This document shows positions 551 through 21,605 of a stretch of 64,000 nt of DNA, one piece after another. Made by a program: the position numbers and the translations under genes. The stretch lies in NCBI GenBank assembly GCA_963795875.1, contig CAWCJM010000003.1, forward strand, positions 662,574 to 726,573. The letters run 5' to 3'. The first letter of the stretch is position 1, and the number at the start of each line of letters is the position of its first letter. The DNA comes from an uncultured Acidobacteriaceae bacterium (GTDB taxonomy: Bacteria; Acidobacteriota; Terriglobia; Terriglobales; Acidobacteriaceae). The notes beneath the pieces are model-generated. The model ran no database searches. It saw only the letters and a program-made list of their open reading frames with translations, and was not told the origin of the DNA.

Positions 551-616
551 AAAGTGTAGCGACGGACGCATTCGTCCGTCCGCAGCCAGCCCCGAGTCGC
601 GATTAGTCACGCCCGA

Positions 617-662
617 GGCAAAACCCATCGAGCTTCGCTCGACCCCGGACGACTGCGTCCGG
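617..662 (-). terminator. Putative intrinsic terminator downstream of valS (two hairpins plus T-run)
   Basis: On the minus strand, directly after the valS stop: hairpin ccggacg-cagtc-gtccgg, then cgagc-gaa-gctcg followed by atgggttttgcc. Confidence 0.45.
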
Positions 663-668
663 ACTGAT

Positions 669-3458: not shown

Positions 3459-3599
3459 GAATGTGTGCTATCGAGATTCGTGTGGGAACAGTCCACTCCT
3501 ACGGCTTAAGGACAGGTCCCGGCTGTCCTGCCGGAAGTCAGCCGGCAGTTGCGCACCAGAAGGAGGAACTTTTGATCTTACAGGTCAGAGAAAAGGGGG

Positions 3600-3613
3600 G
3601 TCAAACGGGGAGA
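3600..3613 (+). repeat. 14-nt direct repeat copy 1 'gtcaaacggggaga' (candidate target-site duplication, left)
   Basis: Identical 14-mer at 19128-19141 and 21592-21605, all in the same orientation. This copy lies immediately outside the left inverted repeat. Confidence 0.7.
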
Positions 3614-3645
3614 GGGGTGAGAACAGGACGGGATGGAATATGCAC
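3614..3645 (+). repeat. Left terminal inverted repeat (TIR arm A) of the casposon-like element
   Basis: 'ggggtgagaacaggacgggatggaatatgcac' versus the reverse complement of 19097-19127, 'ggggtgagaacaggacgggatcaatatgcac'. 30 matching positions, differing only by gg versus c. Confidence 0.7.
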
Positions 3646-4313: not shown

Positions 4314-4790
4314 TCATTTTCGAACTGGCACTCGGCGGACAACATTCTTAAGAAGCTGCAGTGATCGCGCGTGAACTGGTTGGCCTCGTCGTGCTCGCAC
4401 GATTGTATGACGACTCAATCCGGTTTCGAATTCCAAAAAGGCTAGCGGTATTTCAAGTAGCCGTTTTCTGAGTTGCTCATCGGCAATACCCGTATCAGAA
4501 CCGTATCGCACTAGCGAAGGCATCAGCGTACTCACATCGTCGCTCTGCTCCCAGCCTCGCTCCGTTTCTTTGCCGATCAAATGAAAACTCGTTGCTGTCA
4601 CCGGATATCGCTTGAGCAGACCAGCCGTATCGGGTTTGCAACGGCTTCCATCCGGCGCGGAACTCTTGGCTTCGCGGTGGCCATGATACTGCTTGAATAC
4701 CATTGCAAAGGTTTGCACCACGATCGGTACGATCGGCTTTTCCAAACTGTGAGTTGTGCCGTCATGAATCTTCACATGAGGCAATTTCAT
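4314..4790 (-). CDS. 158-aa hypothetical protein, translationally coupled to PolB, with a C-terminal HTH-like segment; paralog at 21979-22371
   Basis: The ATG (4788-4790) overlaps the PolB TGA (4787-4789) as ATGA. The motif QYHGHREAKSSAPDG..DTAGLLKR...IGKETERGWEQSDDVS is repeated in ORF 21910-22371. Confidence 0.65.
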   Translation of the reverse strand: MKLPHVKIHDGTTHSLEKPIVPIVVQTFAMVFKQYHGHREAKSSAPDGSRCKPDTAGLLKRYPVTATSFHLIGKETERGWEQSDDVSTLMPSLVRYGSDTGIADEQLRKRLLEIPLAFLEFETGLSRHTIVRARRGQPVHARSLQLLKNVVRRVPVRK

Positions 4791-7198
4791 CCATTGCGAT
4801 GAGTCTTTTTGAATGGAGCCAAGAGAGTGAGCGGAACGTTGGTCAGGTTCACCAGGACTGGAGACAGTGCAAAATTGTAGGGTCTGGCCTGATCGCGTCG
4901 TAAACGACGCAGTGCTGCCATGACGTTGGGTGTGCTGATAGCGATCCGTCTCATAACCGGAAGACGAAACCACTTCGGCTTGTGACTGCGGAATCGGAGA
5001 GCCTGGTTCAACATCCATTGCCAGCCCTCCTTGATCCAGGTTGCCACCTCACACTCTGCATCGCGACCCTCTTTTGGTCGATAGTAGAGGCCGAGTCCGT
5101 GCTCACTCACTTTGATGAGGTGAATTCCAGATTTCTCCCGGGTGTACAGAGCGTAGCGTTTCGCGGAAATACCGTAGCCGTACAGTTGTCGTTGGCCACC
5201 TTCCGAATCGAAATTGAGCTCTTGGACAATGTTCAGGATTGAGCCTGGAATCACTCTCTTGTCATAAGGATTCAAAACCTCGAATCGATTGACTATTTCC
5301 CGAACCTGCTTCCATGGCAGAGCTTTGATGGCATCACTTCCATCCGGCATCCGATGCGACCCGCCAGTGCACCGTACGAGACCGCCTTGTTCCGACGAGG
5401 CGATAGCCATGGAATCGGTGTCGCACATGAGATAACTTCCGCCGGCATCTGCGACCATCCGTTCCAACATGGTCAGAAGCAATCTTCCGCCTGCTGTAAT
5501 CAAAGAGGCCACAGGTGGGAAATACCAGGGGCCCGGCACTTCCATGACGCAGGTTCGTTCAGTCCCGCTCAGTTCTCCCGAAAAGATTCCGATTTTCTTT
5601 GCCTTGTTCTTCCCAACTTGGAGCTTGTTGACTTCGGCATAGATTCCATAGCACCCGGCGTTCGCCAGGATTTTGAGGAAATAATAGAGCGGATCGCTCT
5701 TCTGTTTTCCCTTCCGTTCTTCAATGACTTTGCGAAAGAAATCATCCACATACGGATCGATCGAGCCTGTCCCCAACGTAACGGAGTTCATCCCCTTCTG
5801 AACGCCTACCGGTTCGATCCGAATTGCTCGCAAAATCTTCGATGGTCTCCCCGTTAGTAGTGCTGATCCGACCACGTCGGGACCCGCGAGCCAAACTGGC
5901 GCATCTGACGTGAGAGGATTCAGTCCGATGTTCGTTTGGCCAACTGTCTGACCATCTCCATAGACCGTTCGAACCGGGACGATATCGCCTTCGGGCTGGA
6001 CCAAGGCAAAGAAGGCGAGCTTGGGCCATGTCCTCTGATCAAGCAGACTATCGACCGTGAGTGATTGCAAAAGAGCTCGGATCTCGTCACTGGCGTCTCG
6101 CACTTGTACTCGATCTGCCGTTAGGACTCGCCATAGACCCAAAAGGGTGTTTACCGTCGGGTATTGGCTTGTGAAATCTGTATACACAACCGGGACAGGA
6201 GTGTGACGGATGCGAATTTCCGCGCGTCCACCGTAGTACGCCTGCATGCAGATGCCGTTCGTCTGGTTGTCGAGCTGGAATTTCTGCTGTGGCGAGATAA
6301 CCCCCATCGTTTTCAGAAAGGCTTTGGCGATGGAAGCAGCTGAGTAGGCTCTTTCCGGTGGAAGGTCGCCCAGAGGATAGTTTTTGAATTCGGCGATTAG
6401 TGCGTTCAGCAATCCGACGGTCGCACGAACGTCTTGCCTGCAATACTTGATCTCTTCGGGCGTGACTCTTCCACTTGGAACGTAGTTGTCAAGTTTGCCC
6501 GGCACCTTGAATTCGCGACACGCACTATCAAGACTGAGACTCTTGTTTCGGAGGGCCCAGACTAACGTCTTGAGATCGAGGAACCGACCGACTCGATACG
6601 GTTGGTTCATGTCGCCTCCGGCCAAGCGAATGAAGGCAGCTTTCGAGTCTTTCGGGCGAAGTTGGATGCGAGGGCGGAACGTGTTCGGCAACCACTCGCC
6701 TTTTGCCTTGTTCTTGTAGCGAAAGACAACAAAGCTCCAACCTCGTCCTCCAGCTCCGCGCGCTACGCGATACTCGACCGCGAGCCGCGACAGATCGAAA
6801 GGCAAGTTGAAAGCGACAATCGCTGCTCCAGCCTGGACCGCCGTATACATCACTTTCTCGACGAATATCCGGCGCTCGTAAAGCCTGAGTTTCAACTCAC
6901 CTTTAGCCCGTTTCTCGTTTTGCTCAGTGACGTAGGCGCGGAATACGCTCTGCTGTCCTGGTGCTAGTTCGTCGCCATAGAAGATTCCTTCCTCCGGGCA
7001 CCGATACTTGCCCTCGGTCGTCAATTCACAAAACTGATAAACACCGAAATTTAACGTCTGGAGGGCATCGGTAGTAGTCTCGGTATCGACAACGAGAACA
7101 TACTTCGGAAGCGGGTCTTGTTTGCGTTTTCCGCTCTTTTCTAAGGTTTCCTCCTCCAGGATGCAGGTATGACAGCGGAGAAAAATTTCGTGATTCAT
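4787..7198 (-). CDS. polB: Family-B DNA polymerase (803 aa, intact)
   Basis: Motifs in canonical order: Exo I VLVVDTETT, Exo II AFNLPFDLSRL, Exo III YCRQDVRAT, motif A VVYTDFTSQYPTV, motif B KILANAGCYGIYAE, motif C YLMCDTDSMAI, KxY ISAKRYALY. Confidence 0.9.
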   Translation of the reverse strand: MNHEIFLRCHTCILEEETLEKSGKRKQDPLPKYVLVVDTETTTDALQTLNFGVYQFCELTTEGKYRCPEEGIFYGDELAPGQQSVFRAYVTEQNEKRAKGELKLRLYERRIFVEKVMYTAVQAGAAIVAFNLPFDLSRLAVEYRVARGAGGRGWSFVVFRYKNKAKGEWLPNTFRPRIQLRPKDSKAAFIRLAGGDMNQPYRVGRFLDLKTLVWALRNKSLSLDSACREFKVPGKLDNYVPSGRVTPEEIKYCRQDVRATVGLLNALIAEFKNYPLGDLPPERAYSAASIAKAFLKTMGVISPQQKFQLDNQTNGICMQAYYGGRAEIRIRHTPVPVVYTDFTSQYPTVNTLLGLWRVLTADRVQVRDASDEIRALLQSLTVDSLLDQRTWPKLAFFALVQPEGDIVPVRTVYGDGQTVGQTNIGLNPLTSDAPVWLAGPDVVGSALLTGRPSKILRAIRIEPVGVQKGMNSVTLGTGSIDPYVDDFFRKVIEERKGKQKSDPLYYFLKILANAGCYGIYAEVNKLQVGKNKAKKIGIFSGELSGTERTCVMEVPGPWYFPPVASLITAGGRLLLTMLERMVADAGGSYLMCDTDSMAIASSEQGGLVRCTGGSHRMPDGSDAIKALPWKQVREIVNRFEVLNPYDKRVIPGSILNIVQELNFDSEGGQRQLYGYGISAKRYALYTREKSGIHLIKVSEHGLGLYYRPKEGRDAECEVATWIKEGWQWMLNQALRFRSHKPKWFRLPVMRRIAISTPNVMAALRRLRRDQARPYNFALSPVLVNLTNVPLTLLAPFKKTHRNG

Positions 7199-7530
7199 GG
7201 CAAGCTCTCCTCTTCAGAAAGAAGTTGGGCGCATCGATGCATTGCATCGGCGAGCATTCGAAGGAACACCGCTGTAGCGTTGAGCGCACACTTGACGGTC
7301 AGCCTAAGGTTAAGCTGAGCACGCATATCAGCGTCTGCTCGGCGGCGAAGTTCCGTCACCATTGCATGGCATGCTAGGCAGAGTGGAGCCGTAAGAAACT
7401 CATCGTGGTTCTGACCAGCGGTATGGTCTTGCTCGATAAGGAAACCTGTTCTCCCACAAAGCAAGCACCTTCCTTGCTCCAAGCGCCGAGCTCTTCTACG
7501 CGCAGTCTCGATCGGCTTTTCGTTCATCAT
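7195..7530 (-). CDS. HNH-type endonuclease-like protein (111 aa)
   Basis: CLLCG...EQDHTAGQNHD...LCLACH arrangement (CxxC...DH...N...CxxCH). 4-nt overlaps with both neighbours (7527-7530, 7195-7198). Confidence 0.65.
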   Translation of the reverse strand: MMNEKPIETARRRARRLEQGRCLLCGRTGFLIEQDHTAGQNHDEFLTAPLCLACHAMVTELRRRADADMRAQLNLRLTVKCALNATAVFLRMLADAMHRCAQLLSEEESLP

Positions 7531-7988
7531 GACGACGCCTCCGGGAGGGCGTAGATTTCATCCAGCGTTAACGCACCCGCTTGGGCCAGGGAACTCAGAA
7601 GATCGGGGTCGGTGATCAGCGCGTGTCCACCAATCGACTTTCCTTCGAACTTCCCTAAGCCTTCAACATCACCCGTTCGGAGGTACTTGCCGACCGCCGC
7701 CATGTATTTACCCAGCTCCGACGCTTGCTTCGAACCGCGTACCGTGACTGGAGCGTTTCCAACGGCCGTCGGTACCAGCATGTCGCGCTTTCGGCGATCC
7801 CCTCTCGTGCTCTTTCCGTGCTCCCGTAATTCGGTCGAAAGGTATCTCCGGACAGTGCGAGGATCGATTTCTTCCTCTCGTGCCGCGACGGTTAAGCTCG
7901 AACCCGTCCGGCGCATCCGCGCGAGTACATGAAGTGCGCGGTTGTACGTTTTCTGCCTTTTTCCACGTCGTTTTTTACCGTTTCGCAT
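7527..7988 (-). CDS. Hypothetical DNA-binding (HTH) protein, first gene of the polB operon
   Basis: Basic N-terminus followed by ALHVLARMRRTGSSLTVAAREEEIDPRTVRRYL (HTH-like). Stop overlaps the HNH start. Confidence 0.55.
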   Translation of the reverse strand: MRNGKKRRGKRQKTYNRALHVLARMRRTGSSLTVAAREEEIDPRTVRRYLSTELREHGKSTRGDRRKRDMLVPTAVGNAPVTVRGSKQASELGKYMAAVGKYLRTGDVEGLGKFEGKSIGGHALITDPDLLSSLAQAGALTLDEIYALPEASS

Positions 7989-8122
7989 TCCTCAGCTCCC
8001 TTCTGCTACTGCTTGATGGAAGCTAACATGTGCTATATCATTGGTTTACGTCGACTCGCTGAGGACGTTTAAGCTTAATACGGCAATAATGATGTTTTAA
8101 GTATTATTAACTTGGCAAGTGC
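7989..8122. promoter_or_regulatory. AT-rich divergent intergenic region between the polB operon (-) and the cas1 operon (+)
   Basis: Locally very AT-rich: ...ttaagcttaatacggcaataatgatgttttaagtattattaacttggcaagtg. It sits between two divergently transcribed gene sets. No specific promoter boxes are asserted. Confidence 0.45.
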
Positions 8123-9124
8123 ATGGAACTCGATGACTTTAATTTGGCGGAAAAAATCTTGTCGGCGCTCGACGAGCACAAGCCCCTACGAGGTTATCCG
8201 TCACAAATTGACAAAGATCGGTTGTGGAACATGCGCCAGCACCTTCGTTTTTTTTTAGAGACCACTTGGGACGAGGTTGGCTGCCGGTTTCAAACTTTCC
8301 GAAAGATGGCGGATCTGCGAGCTGTTATGAAGCCCTGGGAAAAACGAATAGAGCAGGAAGAGCATGTTGTAAGAGCCTTACTCTGGAATGGCGAACGGCC
8401 AGCTACATCGAGATCGCTGTATCGCCAGCGCAAGCAGCTTGGCAAGTTGCGTGACCGTTACATGAGCGCGATAGAGTTGATCGATCAGTGTCGGGATTTC
8501 CTGGAGCGCTTCATGGTCATTCCCGCTCAACACCTATCCCTTGCAGAACAGGACGTCATCCGCGACGCGATTTGCGAAAGAGCACGAAAGCTGGCTCATG
8601 CTGGAGAGGAGTGCATTGCTCTGAGGGAACAAGAAAAAGAGTTGGAAATATTGATAAAAGACGGCGAGGCTTACTTTGCTCGAAATGAACTGTTCGATTT
8701 CTACCGTAGTAAGCGCTACAGACTGACACCCCTCGACGTTGCGAATGCTCTTGCGGGCCTTCCATTCATAGGTTGGAGACGTTCTGCTGACAGATGTCGA
8801 AAATGGAAGGAAGAGCCAGAAGGTATAAGCTTCGGGATTTTTCGCATTCTTCTGCGAATTGTAAGAGCCAATGTACGCCGATCGGATTTGATGAGAGATG
8901 CGGATAAGTTCATCGAAGCCAAGAGCCCTATAGGGAACAAATTTGCTCTCGCTGATTTGCGCGAAAATCGTTATTACCTTCGAAGGTCGATAGCCGCCGT
9001 GTTGGAGCAAGGAACGAAGCGGGTTGACCTAACGGCTGCGATTTCCAGAGAGTACTGGAAACGCAAGTCACACCCCACTGCTGTAGACCGTGCATTTGCA
9101 GAGGAAGAAAGAATCGTAAAGTGA
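8123..9124 (+). CDS. 333-aa hypothetical protein, no recognisable domain, translationally coupled to cas1
   Basis: Long intact ORF. Its TGA (9122-9124) overlaps the GTG (9121-9123) of the cas1 ORF. Confidence 0.6.
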   Translation: MELDDFNLAEKILSALDEHKPLRGYPSQIDKDRLWNMRQHLRFFLETTWDEVGCRFQTFRKMADLRAVMKPWEKRIEQEEHVVRALLWNGERPATSRSLYRQRKQLGKLRDRYMSAIELIDQCRDFLERFMVIPAQHLSLAEQDVIRDAICERARKLAHAGEECIALREQEKELEILIKDGEAYFARNELFDFYRSKRYRLTPLDVANALAGLPFIGWRRSADRCRKWKEEPEGISFGIFRILLRIVRANVRRSDLMRDADKFIEAKSPIGNKFALADLRENRYYLRRSIAAVLEQGTKRVDLTAAISREYWKRKSHPTAVDRAFAEEERIVK

Positions 9125-10572
9125 TCGCGTTTCCTCAGAATGGAGATCCAATGGCCTCGACTTCGTTTTCTCAAACAAATATTCAGCCTCGACAAGGAGT
9201 AGTCACACTTTTTGGATACGGGACGAGCGTGCGCGTCGATCGAGGACACTTGGTCCTCGAAGATGGAATTGCAAACAATCGTCATCAGGGGCGTTTCCCG
9301 AGAGTTGGACACGGTCTTCGACGGGTTGTCGTCATTGGCGCAGACGGGATGGTTTCGCTCGCTGCTCTCCGTTGGTTAGCGGACCAAGACGCAAGCTTTG
9401 TGATGCTTGATCGGGATGGCTCAATGCTGGCGACAACGGGCCCGGTTCGATCTTGGGATTCCAAACTTCGGCGTTCTCAAAGTCTTTCAATTTAAAATGG
9501 TGCAGGTCTGCGGATCGCGCGGGATTTGATCAGCAAGAAGCTTTCCGGACAAGAACAAGTCTCACGCAACAAGCTTCTGGATTCCTCAACTGCCGACAAA
9601 ATCGCTCGTTACAAATTCGAACTGCCTCATGCTGACTCCATTTTTACAATTCGGTTGATTGAGTCGCAAGCTGCACGCGCCTATTGGTCTGCGTGGAGCA
9701 CGTTGCCAGTGAATTTCCCGAAGAGCGACTTACCACGAGTTCCCGATCATTGGCGCAGCTTTGGAGCACGTGTTTCTCCCCTTACCGGATCGCCTCGACT
9801 TGCCGCCAATCCAGCCAATGCAATACTGAACTATCTTTATTGCGTTCTAGAATCTGAATACCGGTTAGCGGCTACTGCGCTGGGGCTGGACCCTGGTTTA
9901 GGTGTCCTGCACGTCGATACTCCATCTCGGGACAGTATGGCGTGCGACGTAGTGGAGCCGGTTCGCTCTGCCGTAGATTCGTATGTTCTCGATTGGATCA
10001 CCCGACAGCCATTAAAGCGTGAATGGTTTTTCGAACAGCGGGACGGCAATTGTCGATTGATGGCTCCGTTCGCCGTCCGTCTGTCTGAAACAGCGACGAC
10101 TTGGAGACGAGCGGTCGCTCCGGTGGCGGAATGGATAATGAAACAATTCTGGTCGACGACGCAGAAGCGAACGCAGACTCCCCAAGCACCTACGCACTTG
10201 ACTCAGGCACACCGACGCGCAGCTAAGGGTACTTCATCTGAAACAAGCATGCGCGCAGCACAGCAGAGCGATAACCTCTGTCCAGGATGTGGAAAAACAA
10301 TTCGGAGTAACAGCAGGACCTGTGTCCAATGCGGCATCCCGACCTCGACGAAGAACATGTTGAGTGCAGCCCGAGTCGGACGTTTGACGGCAAATGGACC
10401 CGAGGCCCAAGCTAAGCGAGCGACAAAAGCTCGGACGAACACACTAGCAAAACATTCGTGGAAGGATTCCGATCAACCAGCTTGGCTAACACCTGAATTG
10501 TTAGCGGGAACAATCCAGCCTTTGCTGGCTAGCGTTTCGATGTCAGCCATCCGATTGACACTTGGAGTTTGA
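9121..10572 (+). CDS. cas1: Cas1-family integrase (casposase-like) with C-terminal Zn-ribbon and HTH. Disrupted by one frameshift near 9490 and two in-frame stops (10570, 10579); homology continues to about 10650.
   Basis: N-terminal domain: GHLVLEDG...LRRVVVIGADGMVSLAALRWLADQDASFVMLDRDGS. Catalytic domain: ANPANAILNYLYCVLESEYRLAATALGLDPGLGVLHVDTPSRDSMACDVVEPVRSAVDSYVLDWI (E, H and D/E residues present). Zn-ribbon CPGCGKTIRSNSRTCVQCG. After GV-TGA-NW-TAA the same frame reads GSKIRQGYRPHPRHWQNCAALVG. Confidence 0.85.
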
Positions 10573-10675
10573 AACTGGTAAGGAAGCAAGATTCGACAAG
10601 GGTATCGCCCACACCCGAGGCACTGGCAGAACTGCGCTGCACTTGTTGGGAACGCTTCTGGTGCAGTCCCAGCTT

Positions 10676-11600
10676 CTAATCGCGGTTTCCCGATTTCACA
10701 ATCCAGGTCCAAACGACTACGACGGTGGAGGCAGCGACAATAAGTTCCGCCCAAGTGAAGGAAACGTAATCGCCAAACACCCCGACCGGAGGCACGCCTG
10801 GCTCCACATTGCGCAGGGCCGGCAAGCCAAAGATGAGAGACACCGACAATGAGAGCGGCAACAAGGTGGATTGCCCCTTGACTGCCGTCGCCGCAGAACC
10901 ATGGCGAGCAGGCTCAGCGCCAGGCACATCATAGTGAGCATCACGACAATCGTGACACCTATCACATTGTCGGCTCGTCTTATGGACAGGTCGATTCCGG
11001 TGACTTCGTGGCTCTGGGCCCTTGAAATTTGCCCACGGAACTTGACTCCCGGGATGGACGCTGTCAGATCAATAGAAATGGGAACGTGATCTTGCTCCAA
11101 CGCTGCCGGGTCGATCGCGAGATTGGGGATCGAGGGCGCGGTCAGTGCATGTGATGAGGGCGGAGGAGCCGATCAAGTAGTCCGGACGCAGTTAGCAGGA
11201 AGCCCAAGGTCGTCTGATGACGGTCAAAGGGGTATCGATTCGTATCTCCGTCAAGGGAAAATTCCGCCTCAAAAGGTCTCATAATTTCTCCGACGGGAAA
11301 ATCGATCTCCTGAGACCCCTGAGAAGCGTTGAGAAACAACTTCAAATTACGTGCCGGAGTTACTCCATCCTTTGTAAGATTTCCGACTGGCCGAAGGCGT
11401 ATCTGTACTCTGAGTTCTGAACGGTTCAGATTCGCTTCCATCACTCTGATACTCACACCGACACGGTCTCCGTCTTTCGCCTCCCGAAGGCGCAAAGAGC
11501 GCCTTTCGCTTTCATGTAGATTGAAAATCAGGATCGCAACGTAAAGAAAACCAACTAACGGCATGATCAAGATTCGAAATCTTGACCCTGGAATGTGCAT
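10676..11600 (-). CDS. Membrane protein (DUF4436-like, from memory), split by about 2 frameshifts
   Basis: ORFs 11142-11600, 10717-11100 and 10676-10927 join into one protein. N-terminal TM ILIMPLVGFLYVAILIF, then ...NRYPFDRHQTTLGFLL, and C-terminal TM segments. Confidence 0.45.
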
Positions 11601-11924
11601 ATTGAACCCCGCGCGGGCTCAGGCGGCTATGGTTGGGCATCCTATGAAGTTCAGGGATTGTTTCCTACTGGCACAAGTGACAGGGGCGAGTCTTCGGAAA
11701 AACATCTATTGATCTGGCCATGCCTCCCCACGCAGACGATTTCCGCGGACGACTGGCAATTCTGTCAGTTGTCGGGTTCGACAGCGCGCGATATTTTCGC
11801 GCACAAGCGGAATCATCTTTCGGTGATGGGGAAAAACAATGAGCGCCGACGACAGAGCGGTCAAGCATGATTCACAAACAAACAAATCAAAGGCCCAAAC
11901 CGGCGCGCCGGCAGGGCCGCGTCC

Positions 11925-14253
11925 ATGGACCGTACCGTGCTGCCCGTTCCCGAGCCTCAGTATCCGCCGATCACCGAGCTTGATGTGCACAATGCGCAAG
12001 CCCCGCCACGGTTCCAGGTGAAAGCGCCGAAAGGCGCGCCCAACGTGGTGGTCATCCTTCTCGACAACTTCGGCTTCGGCGATGGATCGACGTTCGGGGG
12101 ACCAATCCAGATGCCGACGCTGGACCGATTAGCCGAGACCGGGCTGCGCTACAACAATTTCAAAGTCCCTCCGTTGTGTTCGCCCAGCCGCGTGGCTTGC
12201 CTTACCGGCCGCAATAGCCATAGCGCAAACTTCGGCGTGATCTCGGAAATTGCCACTGCTTTTCCGGGATACACCGCGATGCGTCCCGCCAGCGTTACGA
12301 TGCTGCCCGAGATCTTGCGGCTGAACGGCTATAACACCGCCATGTTCGGCAAATGTCACGAGCTGGGCCCTTGGGAAGCCAGCGTTGTCGGACCGTTCGA
12401 CCGCTGGCCGATGAATAGCGGGTTTGAGAGGTTCTACGGCTTCATGGCTGGCGAGGCTGACCTGTTTCATCCGGTCATTTACGACAACATGAACAGGGTG
12501 GATATGCATCCCGAGCCCCGGTTACTACGCCAGCTCTGACATCACAGACAAGGCCATCGAATGGGTGCGATCCCAGCATTCACTGGTCCCCGACAAGCCA
12601 TTTTTCGTCTACTACTCCGCCATTGGCACTCACGGCCCGTTCCAAGTGCCCGAGAACGTGGCGCGACCGGTACAAGGGCAAGTTTGACCGCGGATGGGAC
12701 CAAGTGCGAAAGGAAACGCTGGCCCGCCAACTCGAAATGGGAGTCGTGCCGCCGGGCACGGAGCTCGCCCCCAAGCCGCCTGGGATTCAGGAATGGGAGG
12801 ACTTGACGGCCGATGAGAAAAAGGTCTTTGCCAGGTACATGGAAATCTATGCCGCCTTTGGCGAGGTGACCGACTACGAAATCGGGCGGTTCTGGACGCG
12901 ATCGAGAACCTGGACCTGATGGATAACACGCTGATCTTCTACATTACCGGCGACAATGGCTCGGTTTTCCAGGGCGGCCCCATCGGCGCGTTCAATGAGC
13001 TATCTGTGTTCAACGGACTGCCAGAACCGCTTGAGGTGGCGCTGAAAAACCTCGACAAGTTCGGCGGACCCCAATCCCACATTTTGTATCCCAATGGTTG
13101 GGCTTTCGCCGGCGCCACGCCTTTTGCCTGGGGCCACCAGGTGGCCTCCTACGGCGGCATCTGCCAACCAATTGTGATCCATTGGCCGAAAGGCATCAAG
13201 GAGAAGGGCGGCCTGCGCACGCAGTGGTACCACATGATTGACATCGTCCCAACGGTGTTGGAGGCAGTTGGGGTGCCCCAGCCAGATGTCGTCTATGGCG
13301 TCAAGCAGAAACCTATCGAAGGCGTGAGCATGCTCGATACTCTTAATAACGCCCAGGCCAAGTCGCGCCACACCACGCAATACTTCGAGATGGCAGGCAA
13401 CCGTGGCATCTACCAGGACGGCTGGTTCGCCACCACGGTGCACCGTCCGCCATGGGAGGCTAAGGCGCGGGCTACATTTGAAAACGACAAGTGGGAGCTT
13501 TACGACGTGGAGAAAGATTTCAGTTGCGCGCATGACCTTGCCGCCAAGTATCCCGACAAGCTTGAAAAGCTGAAAAAAGTTTTCCTGGAGGAGGCCGTAA
13601 AGTACAACGTGCTTCCGCTCGACGACCGCGCCTGGGAGCGCTTCAACGCCGCCTTGGCGGGCCGTCCGGATCTGATGGAAGGTCGCACCGAGATGACGGT
13701 CTATGAAGGAATGAAAGGAATACCCGAGAATGGGTTCATCAACGTCAAGAACCGCTCCTTTGTGCTTGCGGCCGATATCGAAATTCCTAAGGCGGGCGCT
13801 GAAGGCGTGGTCATCGCCCAGGGCGGGGAAATGGGCGGCTGGAGTCTCTATGTGAAGGACGGCGCACCCAGGTTTGCCTACAACTTTCTCGGTCGCGAGA
13901 CCTACAAGATCGTTGGCCCCGCTCCCCTCCCGGCCGGGAAGGTGATACTCCGCTTCGAGTTTGCCTACGATGGTGGTAGGCCCGGCGCGGGAGGCAACGG
14001 TTCGCTTTTCGTCAACGGCGAAAAGGTCGCCACGGGGCGGATCGAGCACACTCATCCGAACGCGTTTGGCGCGGAAACAACGGACGTCGGCGAAAACCTC
14101 TATACCGCCGTCAGCGACGACTACAAGGTGGGCGATAACAAGTTCACCGGCAAGATTAACAAGGTGACCATCCAGGTCGGCAAATCCAACCTCAGCGAGG
14201 AGGCACAGAATGCTATCCAAGAAATGCGTGGAAGGAGAGCGATGGCCGGCTAA
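11925..14253 (+). CDS. Arylsulfatase (formylglycine-dependent), at least 3 apparent frameshifts
   Basis: APNVVVILLDNFGFGD, sulfatase CxPxR motif PLCSPSRVACLTGR, and a downstream large C-terminal domain. Pieces 11925-12539, about 12540-12690, 12623-12919 and 12919-14253. Confidence 0.85.
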
Positions 14254-14264
14254 TTGTACCCGTG

Positions 14265-14295
14265 AGGAACGCTTCGTCCGCGGGCTAGCGTTCCT
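14265..14295 (+). terminator. Perfect 9-bp hairpin just downstream of the sulfatase
   Basis: aggaacgct (14265-14273), 13-nt loop, agcgttcct (14287-14295). No clear T-run. Confidence 0.35.
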
Positions 14296-14386
14296 GTGAG
14301 AGTGCCGCTAGCGTTTACGGCAAGCGGGTGTCTTGAGTACGGCTATCGCTGGGAAAGTCTGTTCGACATGTTTGGAGGACAGAAAC

Positions 14387-14696
14387 ATGAAATATGCATT
14401 GATTACAGGGTTGATGTTGTTAGCGACATCGCCTTACGGGAGCGCCCAACAAAGCGAGTATCCGATGATGGAGAAGGTCGCTCAAAAAGTCATCGAGAAA
14501 TACCAGAAGTCCAGTTGCGAAGATCTGAAAGCCGAGAAAGCGCAACCGCCAAAAGCGCCAAACCCCCAGCAGGCCGCGATGAAGCAGAAAGCTGTCGCAG
14601 CCCTGAAGAACGAATCCGAAGATGCGCGAGCAGTTCCTTAACAAAATCGCAGGGCCCATTGCCAACAAAATGTTCGAATGCGGCGTGGTTCCCTGA
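14387..14696 (+). CDS. Small secreted protein, one frameshift near 14620
   Basis: Signal peptide MKYALITGLMLLATSPYGSAQQ. The C-terminus in a shifted frame reads MREQFLNKIAGPIANKMFECGVVP*. Confidence 0.45.
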
Positions 14697-14861
14697 TCAC
14701 CGAATTACGGCGTGAACAGGAACATCGCAAGAACCTGAAGAACTGCCAAAAACAAACGTCAAGTTTCTTGATAAAACCAGCGTTCTCTAAGCTCGCGGCA
14801 CATAAACAAAGAAGCAATGACAAGACTTGCGTGGAACACACTATCCTCAAAGGAGAACTCT

Positions 14862-15290
14862 ATGAGGCAAAACCATCTCACGATCGACTTCCCGATTAAA
14901 TCGCCTTCCAACGTGAAGGCGCTGACCGAAGAGCTGCCCTCGTTGATGCCCGATTTCGCGAAAACGCAGGATAGCCTCGGTACCGTGCATTTCTCCCGTT
15001 TCGCGGTCCACGGCGACGAGAAGCTTCTCTTCCTTGCGGACGTTGACGGCGAGGTAAATAAATATTGAACGACTCGTGGAGAATGCAGGAGCCGTTTTGA
15101 AGCCATCTTCAAACACTGGAAAACCCTCCGGTTACGCCCGTGGCGAGTAACTCAGCGGCGGCCATTGAAATGGCTGAAGAATCATAACCACCGGCCTATC
15201 ACGCCGTATAGCGCTTTCGAGGACACTTCGTTAAGGACATCAGGGCGGCCGCGTGCGGCGGGCTTTACGGGCAACACCCACAGAGCACTT
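14862..15290 (+). pseudogene. Small conserved protein usually found next to DyP-like peroxidases (family from memory); multiple frameshifts
   Basis: MRQNHLTIDFPIKSPSNVKALTEELPSLMPDFAKTQDSLGTVHFSRFAVHGDEKLLFLADVDGEVNKY, then shifted frames IERLVENAGAV..., ...NPPVTPVASNSAAAIE..., ...LKNHNHRPITPYSAFEDTS. Confidence 0.35.
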
Positions 15291-15319
15291 GGCTGATCTG
15301 CGCCCGCCATTCAAGTTCA

Positions 15320-17290
15320 GGTATTTAAAGCCTTTATCTTGGAGAAGGTGGTCTTGAAGGCTATAGAGGGCAAGGGTAGGAAAGGTGGATTTATTAGGGA
15401 CGCTGCACTACGACTGCTCCGTGCCTTTCAAGCGCCGCTTTTGGAATTATCACAATCTACGACGGTTCTTTCGCGCGATACATCCAAAGATTCGCAGATC
15501 AACTCGGCACGCGTTCAATGTCTGGTTTCAATTTATTAGTGGGGCGCCTCCGAGCCAGTAGCGAAGGCCCGCCCAGGCGTTCCTTACATGGGCAGATGAA
15601 AACGACCGCCCGGCCATCGGGTTTTGCAGCGCCTATCAAGCCCCTCGGGGTTGGATTCTGGGGCAGCCTGGCCGATCGCAAGACACAGGACAGCGCTGCA
15701 TAGCAGTTGTCACATTGGTCACCAAACCAGGACCAATAGGGGAGCCGTGTGACGACGGGGAACACACCACATACGGCACCGGCGAAGGACGGCGTTGGGT
15801 ACCGGCCGTTCTTGGTCGCGGGCGGCACGAAGCCCCAGAGACGGATGGCCACTGGGAGGCAAGGGAAAGTCGGCGCTCGCCCTCGCGGACATCGGCTTTA
15901 TTCTCCGCGCTTACAAGAATGCCGACGCTGCGACACTTCTTATTGACGGTAGTAAATCCTGCACAGGCGCGCCGGCAACTTGGACGGCTGGTATGCGGCG
16001 ACGAATCTGACGTCCCGCAAATCACTACTGCCGAGGATTGGCACGTGGGGTTCGGGCCCGGACCGGGAGACGATCCGACGGATGTACCCGCGTCGCAAGC
16101 CCGATCTGCCTCAACATCGGTATCACGTGGCCCGGACTGGTTGCGCTGGAGATAAAAGAACGTGTCCCAACGCTATCCTTCAAGTCATTTGGTGCATTCA
16201 TCGAAGGAGCCGCGCAACGAGCCGAGTTAGTCGGGGACACGGGGGCAGACTGGCCGGAACTCGATTGGCGGTTTTGGAAAAGGACACGACCACGTGATGG
16301 TGACGCTCACCATGGCCGGAAGCGGATCGACTACACCGACAGATTGTGTCGCTGGTTCGCCGAAGGAAATGCCTTTCAAGAATGACACCGAGCGGGATGG
16401 CGTTAATGGAGATGCAAAATGGCCAACCCGTTTTTACCGGCGAAGATCCGCTTTGGTAATACCGACGGCGTGGGTTCCGCCCACAATTCGCGGCGGACCG
16501 GAAATTTATCATCCTGATCATCAGCAGCCGTGCGGCGTTGCTTTTGGTTTTACGGGAAGACGTCAATTACATGTTTACCGGAACCGCGAACACTTGGTCT
16601 AAACGGCAGCTTTGCAGTTTTCAAGAAAGCTCGAGACTGATGTCATTCCATTGAAAGGTTTCTGCAGTCGAACAAGAACAAAATAGATCCTGAACTGCTC
16701 GCCGCAAAGATGTGCGGGCGATGGCGCAACGGTGTTCCTCTTGCCTTGTCGCCGGACACGGATCACCCACGGGAGGTATTTAGCCCCCGCAGTTGAACAA
16801 TTTCGAATACGTGAATCCCGACGGGTCGGGGCAATCCGAAGGGAATTCGCTGTCCTGTTGGAGCTCACGGTAGGCACACTCAATCCCGCGAGGTCAGCGA
16901 GTTGCCAGGGGCTACCCGGAGGTAGCAATAATTCTCACCGGCTGATTCGTCGCGGTCTGCCTTACGGACCGACCTATGCATCCCAAGCAACCTTTCGCGG
17001 TCACTGACGTCGGGTGCTTCTTCTTATTAACTCTAATATCGAAAACCAATATGAGTTTGTACTGCGACGTTGGGTAAATGACAGCGAATTCGCTGGAGCC
17101 GTCAGGCTGAACCCAAAGTCCAAAGATCCCCTAATGGGCACCCAGGATCCAGCGGAAAGCATTTTCGTGATACCGCAGGCAAATGGGGAGCCGCCGGTCG
17201 AGGTGACAGGTCTGTCAAGCTTCGCTACCACCAAAGCCGCTGCCTACGTTTTTCTGCCGAGCATCACAGCTATCAAATTGATCGCTAACT
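15320..17290 (+). pseudogene. DyP-type peroxidase-like gene, heavily fragmented (many frame changes and stops); boundaries approximate
   Basis: Fragments CLNIGITWPGLVALEIKERVPTLSFKSFGAFIEGAAQRAELVGDTG and the C-terminal block LLLINSNIENQYEFVLRRWVNDSEFAGAVRLNPKSKDPLMG...AAAYVFLPSITAIKLIA, typical of the DyP family C-terminus. Confidence 0.5.
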
Positions 17291-17373
17291 CGGAAAACGA
17301 GATTAAGAGAGAGAAAAGAGTTAAAAGAGAAGTGGACTTAAAAACGAAGAACCGAGAAGGGATGGAGAACTCA

Positions 17374-17715
17374 ATGAAAAGAATGTCGCAGAAAGCATTG
17401 CTGGTCATAACCTTGCTATCGTTGGCGATTAGCCTAGGGCTGCCCCCCAGAGCGGCATCACAGAATCAAGGAACAGCTAATCAAGACAAAGCTAAGGCTT
17501 GTAACGCTCAAGCCGACAGTAAGAGTCTAGAGGAAGATGAACGCAAGACGTTCGTGCAGGATTGCCTCAGCAAAGCCGGTGTTCAGCAGCCCAGCGAGAT
17601 GAGTCAGAAGGACAAGATGAATGCCTGCAAGGAGATCGCTGACAAGAAGAACCTCACGGGAAGCGACCGCAAGTCGTTCATCAAGGACTGCATGAATAAA
17701 GCTAACCCAAAATAA
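17374..17715 (+). CDS. PsiF-repeat secreted protein
   Basis: Signal peptide MKRMSQKALLVITLLSLAISLG, then two repeats of the type K..CN/K..A..K.L.G..RK.F..DC (KAKACNAQADSKSLEEDERKTFVQDCL; KMNACKEIADKKNLTGSDRKSFIKDCM). Confidence 0.65.
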   Translation: MKRMSQKALLVITLLSLAISLGLPPRAASQNQGTANQDKAKACNAQADSKSLEEDERKTFVQDCLSKAGVQQPSEMSQKDKMNACKEIADKKNLTGSDRKSFIKDCMNKANPK

Positions 17716-18057
17716 CAGGCGCAGTTCTATGGCAATCCCGTATGCCCTCCCGGAACGGCATCTTGGGCGTCCGGAGTGCCTGTAAATGTGGCGAGTACAT
17801 TGGACGTTCGCCGCCTTTATTCCGCAGGGTTGAAGCCTTGTCACAACAGTTATCGTTCGGGACCAACTGTGAGAAAAATACCACTTCCATAACCTTAAGT
17901 TTACCCCTACTTGCGAAATGAGCCTAGGGCGAGGAATGGCACAATAACGGCTTACTCCCGGAGGATGTAATGTAATCGCGAATCAAACTTCTGTATTCTT
18001 TGTACTGATCGTCATTGGATTCATGTCGCCACTTTTGGCCAACAAAAGGGGCAGTGG

Positions 18058-18981
18058 GTGCCGGGACAGTTTGGTCTCAATGCGGGTGTGATTCCAGACC
18101 CCGGAGTAACATATGCCAACTTGGCAGTGAATTACTCCGCGGGTCAATTGAATGACTCCAATGGGAACAACATTCTTCAGAATGTTACGGGGAATTACTC
18201 CTTCTGGGTAGACGAAAACATCTTTTATTATGTCCCGAACCACAAGGTGCTGGGCGGCTATTTCATGCCCTATGTCGCGCTAAGTTATGCAAACGGGGAG
18301 TTGGTGGCGAATATCACCGGCACGAATCTCAACAGCGGCGGAGGTGGGTCGGGTTTTGCCGACCTGTTTGTCGAGCCGTTGCTTTTTGGCTGGCATTTCG
18401 GCAAACGAGTCGACTTTAATGCCGGATACGGATTCGTTGCTCCAACCGGCCGCTACACTGCGGGAGCGAGCGATAACGTGGGTTCCGGATATTGGGGGAA
18501 CAATATCACGTCAGGCACCACCCTCTATATCACCAAGAACCAGGGGACCACCGCAAACCTTGCCACCAACTGGGAAATCCACGGCCAAAAGAGCGTGGCC
18601 AACGTGCTGAGCGGTCAAAATAGCAAAATCACCCCCGGCCAGGCTTTCACCGCTGAGTGGGGAATTGGCCAGGTTCTTCCCTTGAAGAAGAATATGAGCC
18701 AACTGGCCCAACTTGGATTAGTTGGATATGACCAATGGCAGGTTTCGGCTAACGGCGGCAATTACTTGGTAGCCGGAATACCCGTTGCGGCGAGCAGGGT
18801 ACCGTACTACTCAGTTCACGGAATCGGTTTCCAGGCCAATTACATTCTGCCTGCGAAGAATCTGGTAGCCTTCTTCAAGTACTACGATGAGTATTCAGCG
18901 AAAGCTCGTCCGAAAGGACGCACGATCGTGTTCGGATTTTCATGGACGCTGAAGATTCCGAAATCGACGCCAGCAAAGTAA
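18058..18981 (+). CDS. Outer-membrane beta-barrel channel of the MetA-pathway/phenol-degradation-like family; the N-terminus with signal peptide probably lies upstream, frameshifted
   Basis: Alternating beta-strand pattern, aromatic-rich, with terminal ...TIVFGFSWTLKI. Family assignment is from memory of the Phenol_MetA_deg-like family. Confidence 0.55.
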   Translation: MPGQFGLNAGVIPDPGVTYANLAVNYSAGQLNDSNGNNILQNVTGNYSFWVDENIFYYVPNHKVLGGYFMPYVALSYANGELVANITGTNLNSGGGGSGFADLFVEPLLFGWHFGKRVDFNAGYGFVAPTGRYTAGASDNVGSGYWGNNITSGTTLYITKNQGTTANLATNWEIHGQKSVANVLSGQNSKITPGQAFTAEWGIGQVLPLKKNMSQLAQLGLVGYDQWQVSANGGNYLVAGIPVAASRVPYYSVHGIGFQANYILPAKNLVAFFKYYDEYSAKARPKGRTIVFGFSWTLKIPKSTPAK

Positions 18982-19096
18982 GCATCTTCGCTTGGACAGG
19001 CGCGCCGTCGGTTAATTGAAGCTCTGCAGTGTAAGGAACGTGGTGAAGCGTCCTCGGCTTGCAATCGATTCCTTTATTTCGCAGCCCAAGACGGGG

Positions 19097-19127
19097 GTGC
19101 ATATTGATCCCGTCCTGTTCTCACCCC
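19097..19127 (-). repeat. Right terminal inverted repeat (arm A') matching 3614-3645
   Basis: 'gtgcatattgatcccgtcctgttctcacccc' is the reverse complement of the left TIR except for 1 substitution and a 1-nt indel. Confidence 0.7.
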
Positions 19128-19141
19128 GTCAAACGGGGAGA
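19128..19141 (+). repeat. 14-nt direct repeat copy 2 'gtcaaacggggaga'
   Basis: Identical to 3600-3613 and 21592-21605. Lies immediately outside arm A' and immediately before arm B. Confidence 0.7.
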
Positions 19142-19180
19142 GGGAGAAGGGAAGGAAGGGTTCAAATCGAGCCCCCCTCT
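19142..19180 (+). repeat. Inverted-repeat arm B (pairs with 21553-21591)
   Basis: 'gggagaagggaaggaagggttcaaatcgagcccccctct' versus the reverse complement of 21553-21591, 'gggagaagggaaagagacccccaaatcgcgcccccctat'. 30 of 39 positions identical, with identical 12-nt outer ends. Confidence 0.6.
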
Positions 19181-19183
19181 GCG

Positions 19184-19273
19184 AAAAAAAAACAAAAAAG
19201 GGGGAGGGAAGGAAAGAGTAAAAAAGGAGGGGCAGAAAAGGATGGGGTGGAAAAGGAAAAGGAAGGACAAAGA
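19184..19273 (+). repeat. About 90-nt polypurine (GA-rich) low-complexity tract
   Basis: aaaaaaaaacaaaaaagggggagggaaggaaagagtaaaaaaggaggggcagaaaaggatggggtggaaaaggaaaaggaaggacaaaga, with only about 6 pyrimidines. Confidence 0.8.
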
Positions 19274-19291
19274 TGTGTCGATTTTCATTTT

Positions 19292-19330
19292 GGGGGCGTG
19301 GTGCACGGGTGGGCGTGCGGGGTTGGGGGG
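19292..19330 (+). other. G-quadruplex-type motif (5 runs of at least 3 G)
   Basis: ggggg cgtggtgcac ggg t ggg cgtgc gggg tt gggggg. Confidence 0.5.
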
Positions 19331-19463
19331 CAGGCAATGGCGACGTGATGGTATTGTCAAGTCATGGGCAGCAACATATTGATGTCATATCGCGCGAGCA
19401 TAGAAGACCGAAAATGGAAGGCGAGCCCCTCGGCAAACTCGAATCCTTATGCCGGCTATTCGT

Positions 19464-20458
19464 CTATTTGGATTTTCGTGGACGCGAAAACGGACGCAAT
19501 TCCTCTGGATGCTCGCGAAGGTAGGCAAGCAGGTGCTGTTTTTTTTCCTTTCCTCTCCCTTGAGCCATGTTGAGTCCATCCTCGTCGGTCGAAAGAAGTT
19601 GCGGAAAACACGTTTGGACACGGTCATAGATGGAGCGCCAAGTTTTCTTGACGGCAAAAAGTGATATCCCAATGTGGTCACTGATCTCCTCGTCCGTTCC
19701 ACCCGGCGCGATAGCCGCCCGCAACAGGCGTTGCTCGCTCAAACTAAACCCTATTTGCGGCCGGTCGCTGATGAAGAGGGAGCCGACCCAAGATCCTGGA
19801 TGAGCCAACGCCAGTTCACGCGTGACCCCAAAGTCTCGCGGCTCATCTGAGAAAGTCTGTTGATCGACGGCGGGAAAACTCGCGCTGTAGATTCCCGTGT
19901 TGCGGTCGAAGAAAAATCCACCGGCCTGGGGGGCATTGGATAACATTTGAGGAGAGTCCGCCTCGGCGAATATCTCTTTGAGGTGAAACCCACGAAAAGT
20001 TGTACGAATGCGCGCGTTACTTCCGCCGCGACCTCCGGACGGGCAGCTTCCTCTGGCGGGCAAGTGTCGTGCCAAACCACAAGGGTCAGCCCGGCGCCAG
20101 AATTCCCATCTCGAACTTCGGCTGCAGAAAGCAGCGGTGACTTCCCATTGACGAGTCGTTTGACCAACTCCGGCGCAATCCAGAGTGACGGCGTTCTCTG
20201 AATGTCGCGCAGAAAATCATCGTAAACAAAAACCGCCATGCCAATCCCAATAAGGCGGGCGGTCCCGGCGTGAGTTTCCTCAAATAGATTAACGGTCGTG
20301 TAGTCGTCGCGTAAAACACGCCTGATTGCAATTGGAACTTGCTCGATGAGGGTTCCGTATCGCGGACCAAGAATGGGATTCCGGGCAAGATGCGCGACAC
20401 AGGTGCTGATATCCCTCGGCTGCGCAGGTCGGTGCGTTACGCTCACGGAAAGCCCCAA
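19464..20458 (-). CDS. LuxR-family (HTH) transcriptional regulator, one frameshift near 20000-20075
   Basis: C-terminal LSEQRLLRAAIAPGGTDEEISDHIGISLFAVKKTWRSIYDRV is a LuxR/GerE-type HTH. ORFs 19751-20458 and 19464-20075 overlap in different frames. Confidence 0.65.
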
Positions 20459-20668
20459 AAAATTATAGTTGCAAAATCTTTCAGCCCTCTTTTAGAGACT
20501 TGCATATAGCACATTTTTCTTTAGACTGCCAACCTAGTTCGTTCCATGAAGCAACTTCAGGGATCTCGAACTCAACCAGTGGAACTGATTCACTTAGCAA
20601 CCGTAAGATTTTCGCGTCACACAAACGGGCCTCAGACTCGCTGGACAAGAAGTTTCTCAGGAGGACGT

Positions 20669-21142
20669 ATGAAACACAATATTGCGAGAACAACGGTCGT
20701 ACAAATCGCATTGGCCATGGCTGTGGTGAGTATCGCGCCATCAGCCTACGCTCAACATTGCTCATTCGCCGGGGCAGCTGGGAGTTATGGGTTCTCCGAC
20801 AGTGGAACAGTTGTTGGTGTCGGGCCGAGAGCGGCTGTGGGCTTACTGACCTTTAACGCGGCTGGGCAGGTCCAAGGCCCGGTGACGGCGAGCTTGGCCG
20901 GTGGCATCACGCAGACATCGCTCTTTGGGACGTATACGGTGAATCCTGACTGCAGTGGTACAGCCAGCTTTGCCGAGCTCGATCAGAACGGAAACCCCGT
21001 GCTTACGGCAACTGTCGTTGTCGTATGGGACGACAACATGCGCGAGGCCCGATTCATCTTCACATCGGTTGTTCTGGCCAATGGCACACCCCTTGCCACC
21101 GCGGTTAATGGCGAGGCAAAAAAGCTAATGCACTCACATTGA
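20669..21142 (+). CDS. Secreted hypothetical protein
   Basis: Signal peptide MKHNIARTTVVQIALAMAVVSIAPSAYAQ. About 157 aa, beta-rich. Confidence 0.5.
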   Translation: MKHNIARTTVVQIALAMAVVSIAPSAYAQHCSFAGAAGSYGFSDSGTVVGVGPRAAVGLLTFNAAGQVQGPVTASLAGGITQTSLFGTYTVNPDCSGTASFAELDQNGNPVLTATVVVVWDDNMREARFIFTSVVLANGTPLATAVNGEAKKLMHSH

Positions 21143-21166
21143 TCCCCGGCGTTACTAACTCACCCA

Positions 21167-21454
21167 TTGTGTGGTCAGCGACCTCGTCAAACACAAATGG
21201 GCTGCTGCGCGAAGGTTACCGAGAGTCGGCTAAAGAAGGAGCGTTGGCTGACTCTGGACATCAGTCAGACCGCAGTTTCTGATCCGCTGGGGGAAAACTG
21301 GAACTTCCACTGTGACGTTACGAAAACAGTCCTTTGTGATGGTACCGATCTGATTAACGTTGGTCTGCTTTGGTACCCAGGCGGCATGGCAACCATGCCG
21401 ACTCTAGGTGGAAACAACAGTCAGGCATGGGGCGCGAACAATTTAGTCAAGTAG
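21167..21454 (+). pseudogene. Fragment of a HAF-family extracellular repeat protein
   Basis: ...VGLLWYPGGMATMPTLGGNNSQAWGANNLVK*, with VVGVAET continuing after the stop. This resembles the LGTLGG..S.A.GIN..GQVVG repeat; only about 1 repeat is present. Confidence 0.35.
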
Positions 21455-21552
21455 TAGGTGTCGCCGAGACTACAATCAAGATGTGAATTGTGTAGCGCCT
21501 CAAGTCCTGGGCCTAGTCAGAGACCAGTCCCAGTCCAAACATGATCACATGG

Positions 21553-21591
21553 ATAGGGGGGCGCGATTTGGGGGTCTCTTTCCCTTCTCCC
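21553..21591 (-). repeat. Inverted-repeat arm B' (pairs with 19142-19180)
   Basis: See arm B. Lies immediately before the third copy of the 14-mer. Confidence 0.6.
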
Positions 21592-21605
21592 GTCAAACGG
21601 GGAGA
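21592..21605 (+). repeat. 14-nt direct repeat copy 3 'gtcaaacggggaga'
   Basis: Identical to copies at 3600 and 19128. Confidence 0.7.

Follow-up and report, generated by a model that had tools for sequence, protein, structure and literature searches.

Does the casposase gene of a casposon (a self-replicating transposon) in an uncultured member of the Acidobacteriaceae carry genuine nonsense mutations, or is it broken only in the assembled sequence? The question is raised by a stretch of 64,000 nt (GenBank assembly GCA_963795875.1, contig CAWCJM010000003.1, positions 662,574 to 726,573; the whole stretch is referred to here as the window), in which a gene of the Cas1 integrase family, interrupted by stop codons, lies in the same element as a gene for a family-B DNA polymerase (PolB). 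In our judgement the gene probably encodes a casposase with a Cas1 core, a domain that binds zinc (the ZBD) and a helix-turn-helix (HTH) domain, belonging to a bacterial casposon that resembles family 3 and is inserted site-specifically upstream of valS, and this copy is probably a real pseudogene.

Three nonsense codons in a single reading frame

A preliminary description of the window had placed a Cas1-family open reading frame (ORF) at this position and had it broken by one frameshift and two in-frame stops. The Cas1 assignment was borne out, as Pfam Cas_Cas1 matched both pieces of the gene in register (9121-9492, E 1.7e-4, profile 3-87; 9496-10569, E 5.6e-29, profile 97-269), in agreement with the NCBIfam model TIGR00287 (E 1.3e-23). 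The frameshift, proposed near 9490, was not found. Translation of 9121-10860 in one frame gave a continuous Cas1-like protein broken only by three stops (Table 1), and the supposed frameshift is an in-frame TAA (local reading ...SLSI*NGAGLRIARDL...). The ORFs 9121-9495 and 9526-10572 share one frame, positions 9121, 9526 and 10582 all being in frame 1, and the gene contains no indels. The remaining two stops, TGA and TAA, were present as described, and the same frame goes on beyond them as GSKIRQGYRPHPRHW. Translation is likely to start at the ATG at 9151 and not at the GTG at 9121; the ATG has GGAG 6 nt upstream and gives the beginning MASTSF... that the relatives also have. The host genome, an assembly of 11 contigs totalling 5.73 Mb at 65% completeness, contained no Cas1 other than the window gene.

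When the read-through translation was used as the query, thousands of Cas1-family matches were obtained; the best 120 were 63-87% identical to it and, except for a few shorter entries, 490-555 aa long. The window casposase aligned gap-free across all three stops with 14 and with 69 intact relatives. Ser, Ser and Tyr occupy the three sites in the intact relatives, of which there are more than 100, 503-515 aa long, and neither the second Ser nor the Tyr varies (S472 and Y475 in the numbering of P0002, the closest intact relative). Around stops 2 and 3 they read uninterrupted as ...GVS(K/R)WYASKIRQGYRPHPRHW..., and the block after the stops, SKIRQGYRPHPRHW, was kept almost residue for residue. 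The similarity reported earlier for this tail was upheld by intact relatives that align straight through the stops, and on these alignments the sequence past the stops (SKIRQGYRPHPRHW) is real homology. Codon comparison with four relatives gave the changes TCA>TAA, TCA>TGA and TAT>TAA, with TCA, TCA and TAT as the inferred ancestral codons; stops 2 and 3 had indeed been described as one substitution away from a sense codon, and the relatives have TCA and TAT at these sites. At the site of stop 1, a metagenome relative has TCA within an identical local context.

None of more than 100 relatives has a stop at any of the three sites. The casposase occurred in 18 of 200 host-family genomes, one of which had as many as six copies; about 27 copies were full-length and open, a few were fragments with stops, and the window copy was the only full-length casposase with stops. 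Of the best 80 loci in species-representative genomes, the full-length casposase copies were all uninterrupted (77/77). Nearly all of these loci were labelled Acidobacteriota and one was labelled Micrarchaeota. The Cas1-ZBD-HTH casposon family is abundant in soil Acidobacteriota, about one in ten host-family genomes carrying a copy. The 80 loci include two from isolates, Tunturiibacter lichenicola and T. psychrotolerans, and since these cultured organisms have intact casposase homologues, work on a bacterial casposon could be done in a host that grows in culture.

Domain architecture and position of the stops

An AlphaFold (AF2) model was made for P0002 (mean pLDDT 77). It begins with the Cas1 N-terminal β domain and the helical catalytic domain, after which a disordered linker leads to a small β-ribbon with four invariant Cys and then to a confidently predicted four-helix C-terminal domain (helices 446-459, 462-469, 473-480 and 487-501; pLDDT ~90). 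The window gene still encodes the catalytic Glu/His/Asp motifs LESEY, LHVD and CDVVEP, which line up with their counterparts in solved structures of Cas1 and casposase. The zinc ribbon noticed earlier, CPGCGKTIRSNSRTCVQCG, found support in sub-threshold matches to Zn_Ribbon_1 and DZR. The tail past the stops is, on the model, likely to be an HTH, and Pfam HTH_3 matched 12 of 23 family tails below threshold (best E 1.4e-4). The third helix (473-480) is the likely recognition helix in the model, and stops 2 and 3 would lie at its start; stop 1 separates the N-terminal β domain from the helical catalytic domain.

A search of 1.84 billion representatives with nothing but the 68-aa tail as query matched 1044 proteins. 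A Pfam check of ten of these matches found a Cas1 core in four; another, P0126, can be read as a C-terminal piece of Cas1, and several other short tail matches may be Cas1 fragments too. The preliminary description had recognized the motif (I)R.G...PHPRHW as one of HTH proteins of mobile elements, and the module does occur outside Cas1: P0157 and P0169 are small proteins with two tandem ..IR.G...PHPRHW..LA.LVG HTH modules, and in P0170 a ZBD and an HTH are followed by ~290 aa without a Pfam match. A profile search of the PDB with the tail only gave no meaningful match, and a literature search for the motif 'PHPRHW' found no paper. In a Foldseek search with the family fold, the best solved-structure match was the Methanosarcina mazei casposase (PDB 6OPM, E 2e-15), slightly ahead of CRISPR Cas1 proteins. 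The sequence match to 6OPM (E 2.3e-17, ~24% identity) was no better than that to the CRISPR Cas1 of A. fulgidus (7.4e-19), and it breaks off at residue 313 of 431, short of the 6OPM HTH, so that it gives no evidence of homology between the two HTH tails.

The position of the stops bears on the possibility that they are bypassed or used, either by read-through or recoding or through separate fragments, one re-initiated at TTG 9526 (348 aa), that act as an integrase or regulator. The retained catalytic motifs are in keeping with this, as is the 348-aa ORF, which includes the catalytic domain and the zinc ribbon and stays open. However, TAA and TGA are both involved and both are ordinary terminators of the neighbouring genes, and the relatives, more than 100 in number, have no stop at these sites of cas1. 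The 348-aa fragment, moreover, is devoid of the N-terminal domain and of the HTH recognition helix, and an HTH-less casposase is inactive (PMC6977970); the relaxed constraint on Cas1 described below also speaks against a kept function. We consider use or bypass of the stops to be very improbable. An alternative genetic code was rejected, because the stops are of two kinds and the genes nearby terminate in the normal way.

Assembly error or mutation

The stops might instead have arisen as consensus errors in a long-read assembly of low quality; the casposase would then be intact in the cell and the casposon might be active. Error modes were measured with 281 long ORFs from 400 kb of a related genome (G009, 99% complete), which were compared with the host genome by tblastn and yielded 203 orthologues and 252 kb of alignment. 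A genome-wide scan of codon usage for in-frame stops was dropped in favour of this comparison because its discrimination was weak and the composition of the casposon is atypical. The genome proved to be rich in errors: no fewer than 119 changes of frame were counted, and of the 203 orthologous genes 73 (36%) were broken. Many ABC-transporter domains were split, and numerous 1-2 nt homopolymer deletions relative to intact G009 genes were seen in a DUF4436/sulfatase block inside the element itself. That each stop in cas1 is a single substitution from the sense codon of the relatives would fit a sequencing error, and near-perfect terminal inverted repeats (TIRs) and target site duplications (TSDs) are expected of a recently active element.

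The errors of this assembly are, however, of another kind. Of the 82 stops within the G009 alignments, almost all lay where the sequence was out of frame; those few whose flanks were conserved sat in arginine-rich shadow ORFs, and the apparent stops inside ABC-transporter domains were all double-frameshift excursions. Clean nonsense substitutions elsewhere numbered at most ~0-2 in 252 kb (~0.01 per kb), compared with three in 1.5 kb in cas1. As the assembly errors are indels and clean nonsense is nearly absent, the cas1 stops are unlikely to be assembly errors. Two of the stops have the heptamer TTTCAAA in common, and a miscall specific to this context was not supported, 41 of 44 such sites being conserved between the window genome and G009. 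In an indel-ridden metagenome-assembled genome built from long reads, clean nonsense codons can therefore be separated from assembly noise by comparison with relatives.

Relaxed constraint on Cas1

Changes private to one sequence were counted at sites where the other four of five sequences (the window and the relatives L002, L037, L039 and L040) agreed. In Cas1 the window had 24 synonymous and 33 nonsynonymous private changes, compared with 22 and 11 in L002, 66 and 26 in L037, 34 and 25 in L039, and 33 and 18 in L040; the difference between the window and the four pooled relatives (155/80) was significant in this simple count (Fisher p=0.0013). In PolB the window had 46 synonymous and 22 nonsynonymous private changes, the same pattern as in the relatives (p=1). 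These counts suggest that on the window lineage constraint was relaxed in Cas1 alone and not in PolB. The missense excess in cas1, which falls at conserved positions, also argues against the consensus-error explanation, since random errors would not pick one gene. Taking this together with the absence of indels from cas1, we regard assembly error as a rather unlikely source of the stops and infer that they are present in the living cell. By a rough estimate, about a third of the terminal branch was neutral, which would give roughly one to two chance stops, in line with the three observed.

The preliminary description had called PolB intact. In the assembled sequence it is not, as a 1-nt deletion at ~4810/4811 (CATTC-AAAAAG) splits it into the ORFs 4787-7198 and 4314-5018, with 803 aa and an overlapping 234 aa compared with 961 aa in the relatives. 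It has no private stops, and it is the only PF03175 polymerase in the host genome. Because a 1-nt deletion is the usual error of this assembly (~0.5 frame changes per kb genome-wide) and the pattern of changes is that of purifying selection, PolB is probably intact in reality.

We therefore favour real loss of the casposase. Three point substitutions would have turned Ser115, Ser474 and Tyr477 into stops, of which the first would cut the protein after its N-terminal domain and the other two would destroy the HTH recognition helix. After the first stop, cas1 would have drifted, accumulating more missense changes and further stops, with PolB remaining under purifying selection. The integrase had been described as inactivated, and the three in-frame stops bear this out; we infer that they abolish transposition and that this copy has no integrase activity. 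With TIRs and TSD kept but no integrase of its own, the element would be immobile unless a casposase were given in trans.

Targeted hypermutation of cas1, for example by a deaminase acting on TpC, could be proposed in place of ordinary drift. Several damaging changes do lie at a C after T (TCA>TAA, TCA>TGA, TCG>TGG, TCC>TAC and TCT>TTT), and TpC sites account for 16 of 38 C:G changes (29% expected), with C>A/G changes at 7/15 compared with 10/44 in the relatives. The enrichment is nevertheless not significant and is largely forced by the code, in which Ser TCN codons offer the chief single-step path to a stop; in cas1 the spectrum as a whole is like that of the relatives, and the adjoining PolB shows no TpC pattern. 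Hypermutation is accordingly a highly doubtful cause.

Purifying selection on PolB in a lineage where Cas1 drifted raises a further possibility, namely that the casposon may persist as an island serving the host. An immobilized casposon fixed at the valS promoter, with PolB or cargo of use to the host, would be a step towards domestication of PolB; we put this forward as speculation, which is unlikely to be correct.

Several points weigh against a genuine pseudogene. Neither an independent copy of the window allele nor a second assembly of its lineage was found: an exact-product look-up of the adjoining gene orf333 was empty, and two metagenome pattern scans yielded either no match or a relative that is 80% identical and has TCA. 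The assembly is poor (65% complete, valS frameshifted twice), so that some substitution errors may be present: valS itself (607-3458, minus strand) occupies three frames through two +1 insertions, at ~2999 and ~2334. As valS is essential and yet split, this marks the assembly as indel-rich and not valS as dead. The test for relaxed constraint was based on five sequences and on a count in place of a fitted codon model, and the nearest relative is L037 for PolB and L002 for Cas1, so that the elements are mosaic and the Cas1 and PolB branches compared are not strictly the same.

Casposon anatomy and target site

The casposon is 15.5 kb long and is situated ~140 bp upstream of valS (Table 1). The earlier assignment of the gene as a casposase was supported by its setting: together with PolB, a probable HNH nuclease and a probable HTH protein, it lies within a pair of TIRs that are flanked by a 14-nt duplication. 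The site was found empty in relatives, the native flank following directly after the valS-upstream target in G016 (L009, 4407) and G004 (L011, 4354).

Table 1. Positions of the casposon, its genes and its boundaries in the window
Feature	Position	Strand	Remarks
TSD copy 1	3600..3613	.	GTCAAACGGGGAGA; ~140 bp upstream of valS start codon 3458 (minus strand)
Left TIR	3614..3645	+	21 nt perfect; ~30/32 nt match right arm
PolB, family-B DNA polymerase	4314..7198	-	Pfam DNA_pol_B_2 (PF03175), E 7.8e-9 at 4787-7198
HNH-type nuclease, 111 aa	7195..7530	-	CxxC..DH..N..CxxCH motif by eye; sub-threshold NCBIfam match to HNH-like HlpB, E 0.003
Small HTH protein, 153 aa	7527..7988	-	weak match to IS21-transposase N-terminal HTH, E 0.0037, below threshold
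orf333, 333 aa	8123..9124	+	function not assigned; directly upstream of cas1
Casposase gene (Cas1 + zinc ribbon + HTH), probable pseudogene	9151..10659	+	single reading frame; next in-frame stop 10741-10743
Nonsense codon 1	9493..9495	+	TAA, codon 115 from ATG 9151; relatives TCA (Ser)
Zinc ribbon CPGCGKTIRSNSRTCVQCG	10279..10335	+	four Cys invariant in 69 relatives; Zn_Ribbon_1/DZR matches sub-threshold
C-terminal helical (HTH-like) domain	10492..10659	+	invariant ..S..YA..IR.G..PH.RHW.. block
Nonsense codon 2	10570..10572	+	TGA, codon 474; replaces invariant Ser (TCA), start of predicted recognition helix
Nonsense codon 3	10579..10581	+	TAA, codon 477; replaces invariant Tyr (TAT)
Variable region, cas1 to right TIR	10660..19093	.	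DUF4436, sulfatase, PsiF-repeat protein, MetA-type outer-membrane protein
Right TIR	19097..19127	-	inverted-repeat pair with 3614; ~30 nt, two mismatches
TSD copy 2	19128..19141	.	identical 14-mer GTCAAACGGGGAGA directly outside right arm
Second tandem element, 2.45 kb	19143..21591	.	own inverted termini GGGAGAAGGGAA..CAAATCG.GCCCCCC, ~35 nt
TSD copy 3	21592..21605	.	identical 14-mer, then native flank as at relatives' empty sites

The flank seen at empty sites comes directly after the last of the three 14-mers, at 21592, which indicates that the locus is a tandem array of the 15.5-kb casposon and a 2.45-kb element. Neither a Cas1 nor a PolB match to the smaller element was obtained in genome-wide searches, and its three ORFs (235, 198 and 95 aa) had no Pfam match. 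The target upstream of valS, ..GAGAAAAGAAGG joined to GTCAAACG, is conserved in relatives from the genus; as an integration target it can be written TGATCTTACAGGCGCGAGAAAAGAAGG joined to GTCAAACG (window 3560-3613 and relatives), again conserved across the genus upstream of valS. An Rfam search at the target site found no family match.

The closest relative, L002, has a casposon at the same valS-upstream site in the opposite orientation. In that locus (ENA ERZ25039458 contig_13859) a DDE_Tnp_1_4 insertion sequence at 6219-7846 interrupts PolB and Cas1 is intact, the opposite pattern of decay. Relics were also seen at the valS site: G001 has a fragmented Cas1 there, and G009 a solo TIR. The relic in G001 (L014, G001:C9, 8757-10187) lies near valS and is cut by a casposon TIR (8800-8834) whose interior faces away, which suggests that one element was inserted into, or recombined with, another. 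The casposon family uses one conserved site upstream of valS, forms tandem arrays there and leaves relics.

Neighbouring genes and the variable region

The five-gene core (PolB, HNH, HTH, orf333 and cas1) was found in identical order in four metagenome relatives. The HNH gene adjoins PolB in the relatives too, and the position of the small HTH gene is likewise conserved. Homologues of orf333, which had no Pfam or NCBIfam match, are 333-348 aa long in L002, L037, L039 and L040. The flanks of the core vary between relatives and include genes for LmuB_C, an RVT-family reverse transcriptase and a D12-class methyltransferase. In L039 (8759-13888) and L040 (592-2055), Pfam matches to LmuB_C, MC3, CTD7, RVT_1 and HD-CE were found beside the core, and judging by these families the adjoining genes look like defence-type genes.

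In the window, the variable C-terminal tail of Cas1 runs straight into the region 10660-19093, which is either cargo or captured flank. Its DUF4436 and sulfatase block (10666-14269) is 91% identical to positions 6748-10392 of the locus L013 in G009 (G009:C9), compared with 86% for valS. The block is inside the TIR pair here and just outside the solo casposon TIR and TSD in G009, and it looks like a cassette moving around the valS hotspot.

Comparison with known casposons and CRISPR systems

Four features by which casposons are recognized were found here, namely a Cas1 integrase gene, PolB, TIRs with a 14-nt TSD, and an empty site in relatives. Cas1 of CRISPR systems has the same fold and catalytic motifs, and databases label the relatives of the window gene 'CRISPR-associated endonuclease Cas1'. 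The window gene differs from CRISPR Cas1 in its additional ZBD and HTH and in its location between TIRs together with PolB. No CRISPR array was present within window 1-24000 and no Cas family besides Cas1 was matched by Pfam among the ORFs scanned, so that the locus does not have the make-up of a CRISPR adaptation module.

A C-terminal HTH had been put forward as characteristic of casposases. Its presence supports the assignment made here, but as a general marker it was overstated: it occurs in family 2 casposases and only some of family 3 (PMC4046053), and family 1 has none (PMC8464041). In the family 2 casposase of M. mazei (PDB 6OPM; Hickman et al. 2020, PMC6977970), a form without the HTH showed no integration in vitro. 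That enzyme has a C-terminal HTH, as does the window family, but no zinc ribbon.

The closest parallel is AceAut-C1 of 'Ca. Acetothermum autotrophicum', one of the members of the family 3 Cas1 clade together with NitAL212-C1, StrAlb-C1 and HenMar-C1. Krupovic et al. 2014 (PMC4046053) described bacterial family 3 casposons, the Cas1-ZBD-HTH fusion of AceAut-C1, the PolB/HNH/HTH core and tandem arrays. The window casposon resembles AceAut-C1 and family 3 in its bacterial host, in the C-terminal ZBD and HTH of its Cas1, and in having PolB, TIRs, a TSD and variable cargo. The core genes beside PolB would fit as well, the HNH motif being visible by eye and the small HTH protein plausible, with profile matches below threshold for both. 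The likeness is one of gene content and Cas1 architecture. The window casposon differs from family 3 in its target, the conserved site upstream of valS, and in the 333-aa gene that precedes cas1. Acidobacteriota (Terriglobia) are not among the casposon hosts in PMC4046053 or PMC9939771; of the two papers in the searched library that name casposons together with Acidobacteria, the one checked describes no acidobacterial casposon.

For the inactivation itself, the precedent is MetBur-C3, a Methanococcoides burtonii casposon that lies in a tandem array and was disabled by amber mutations (PMC4046053). It resembles the window casposon in lying in a tandem array at one target and in being disabled by nonsense mutations. 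MetBur-C3, however, is an archaeal family 2 element with two mutated genes, whereas in the window only the casposase carries such stops (TAA, TGA and TAA), and PolB still looks constrained. Both Cas1-ZBD-HTH fusions and nonsense-inactivated casposons have thus already been published (Krupovic et al. 2014, PMC4046053); a nonsense-inactivated casposase has published precedent, and the decay of cas1 described here is ordinary transposon decay in an element of a known kind.

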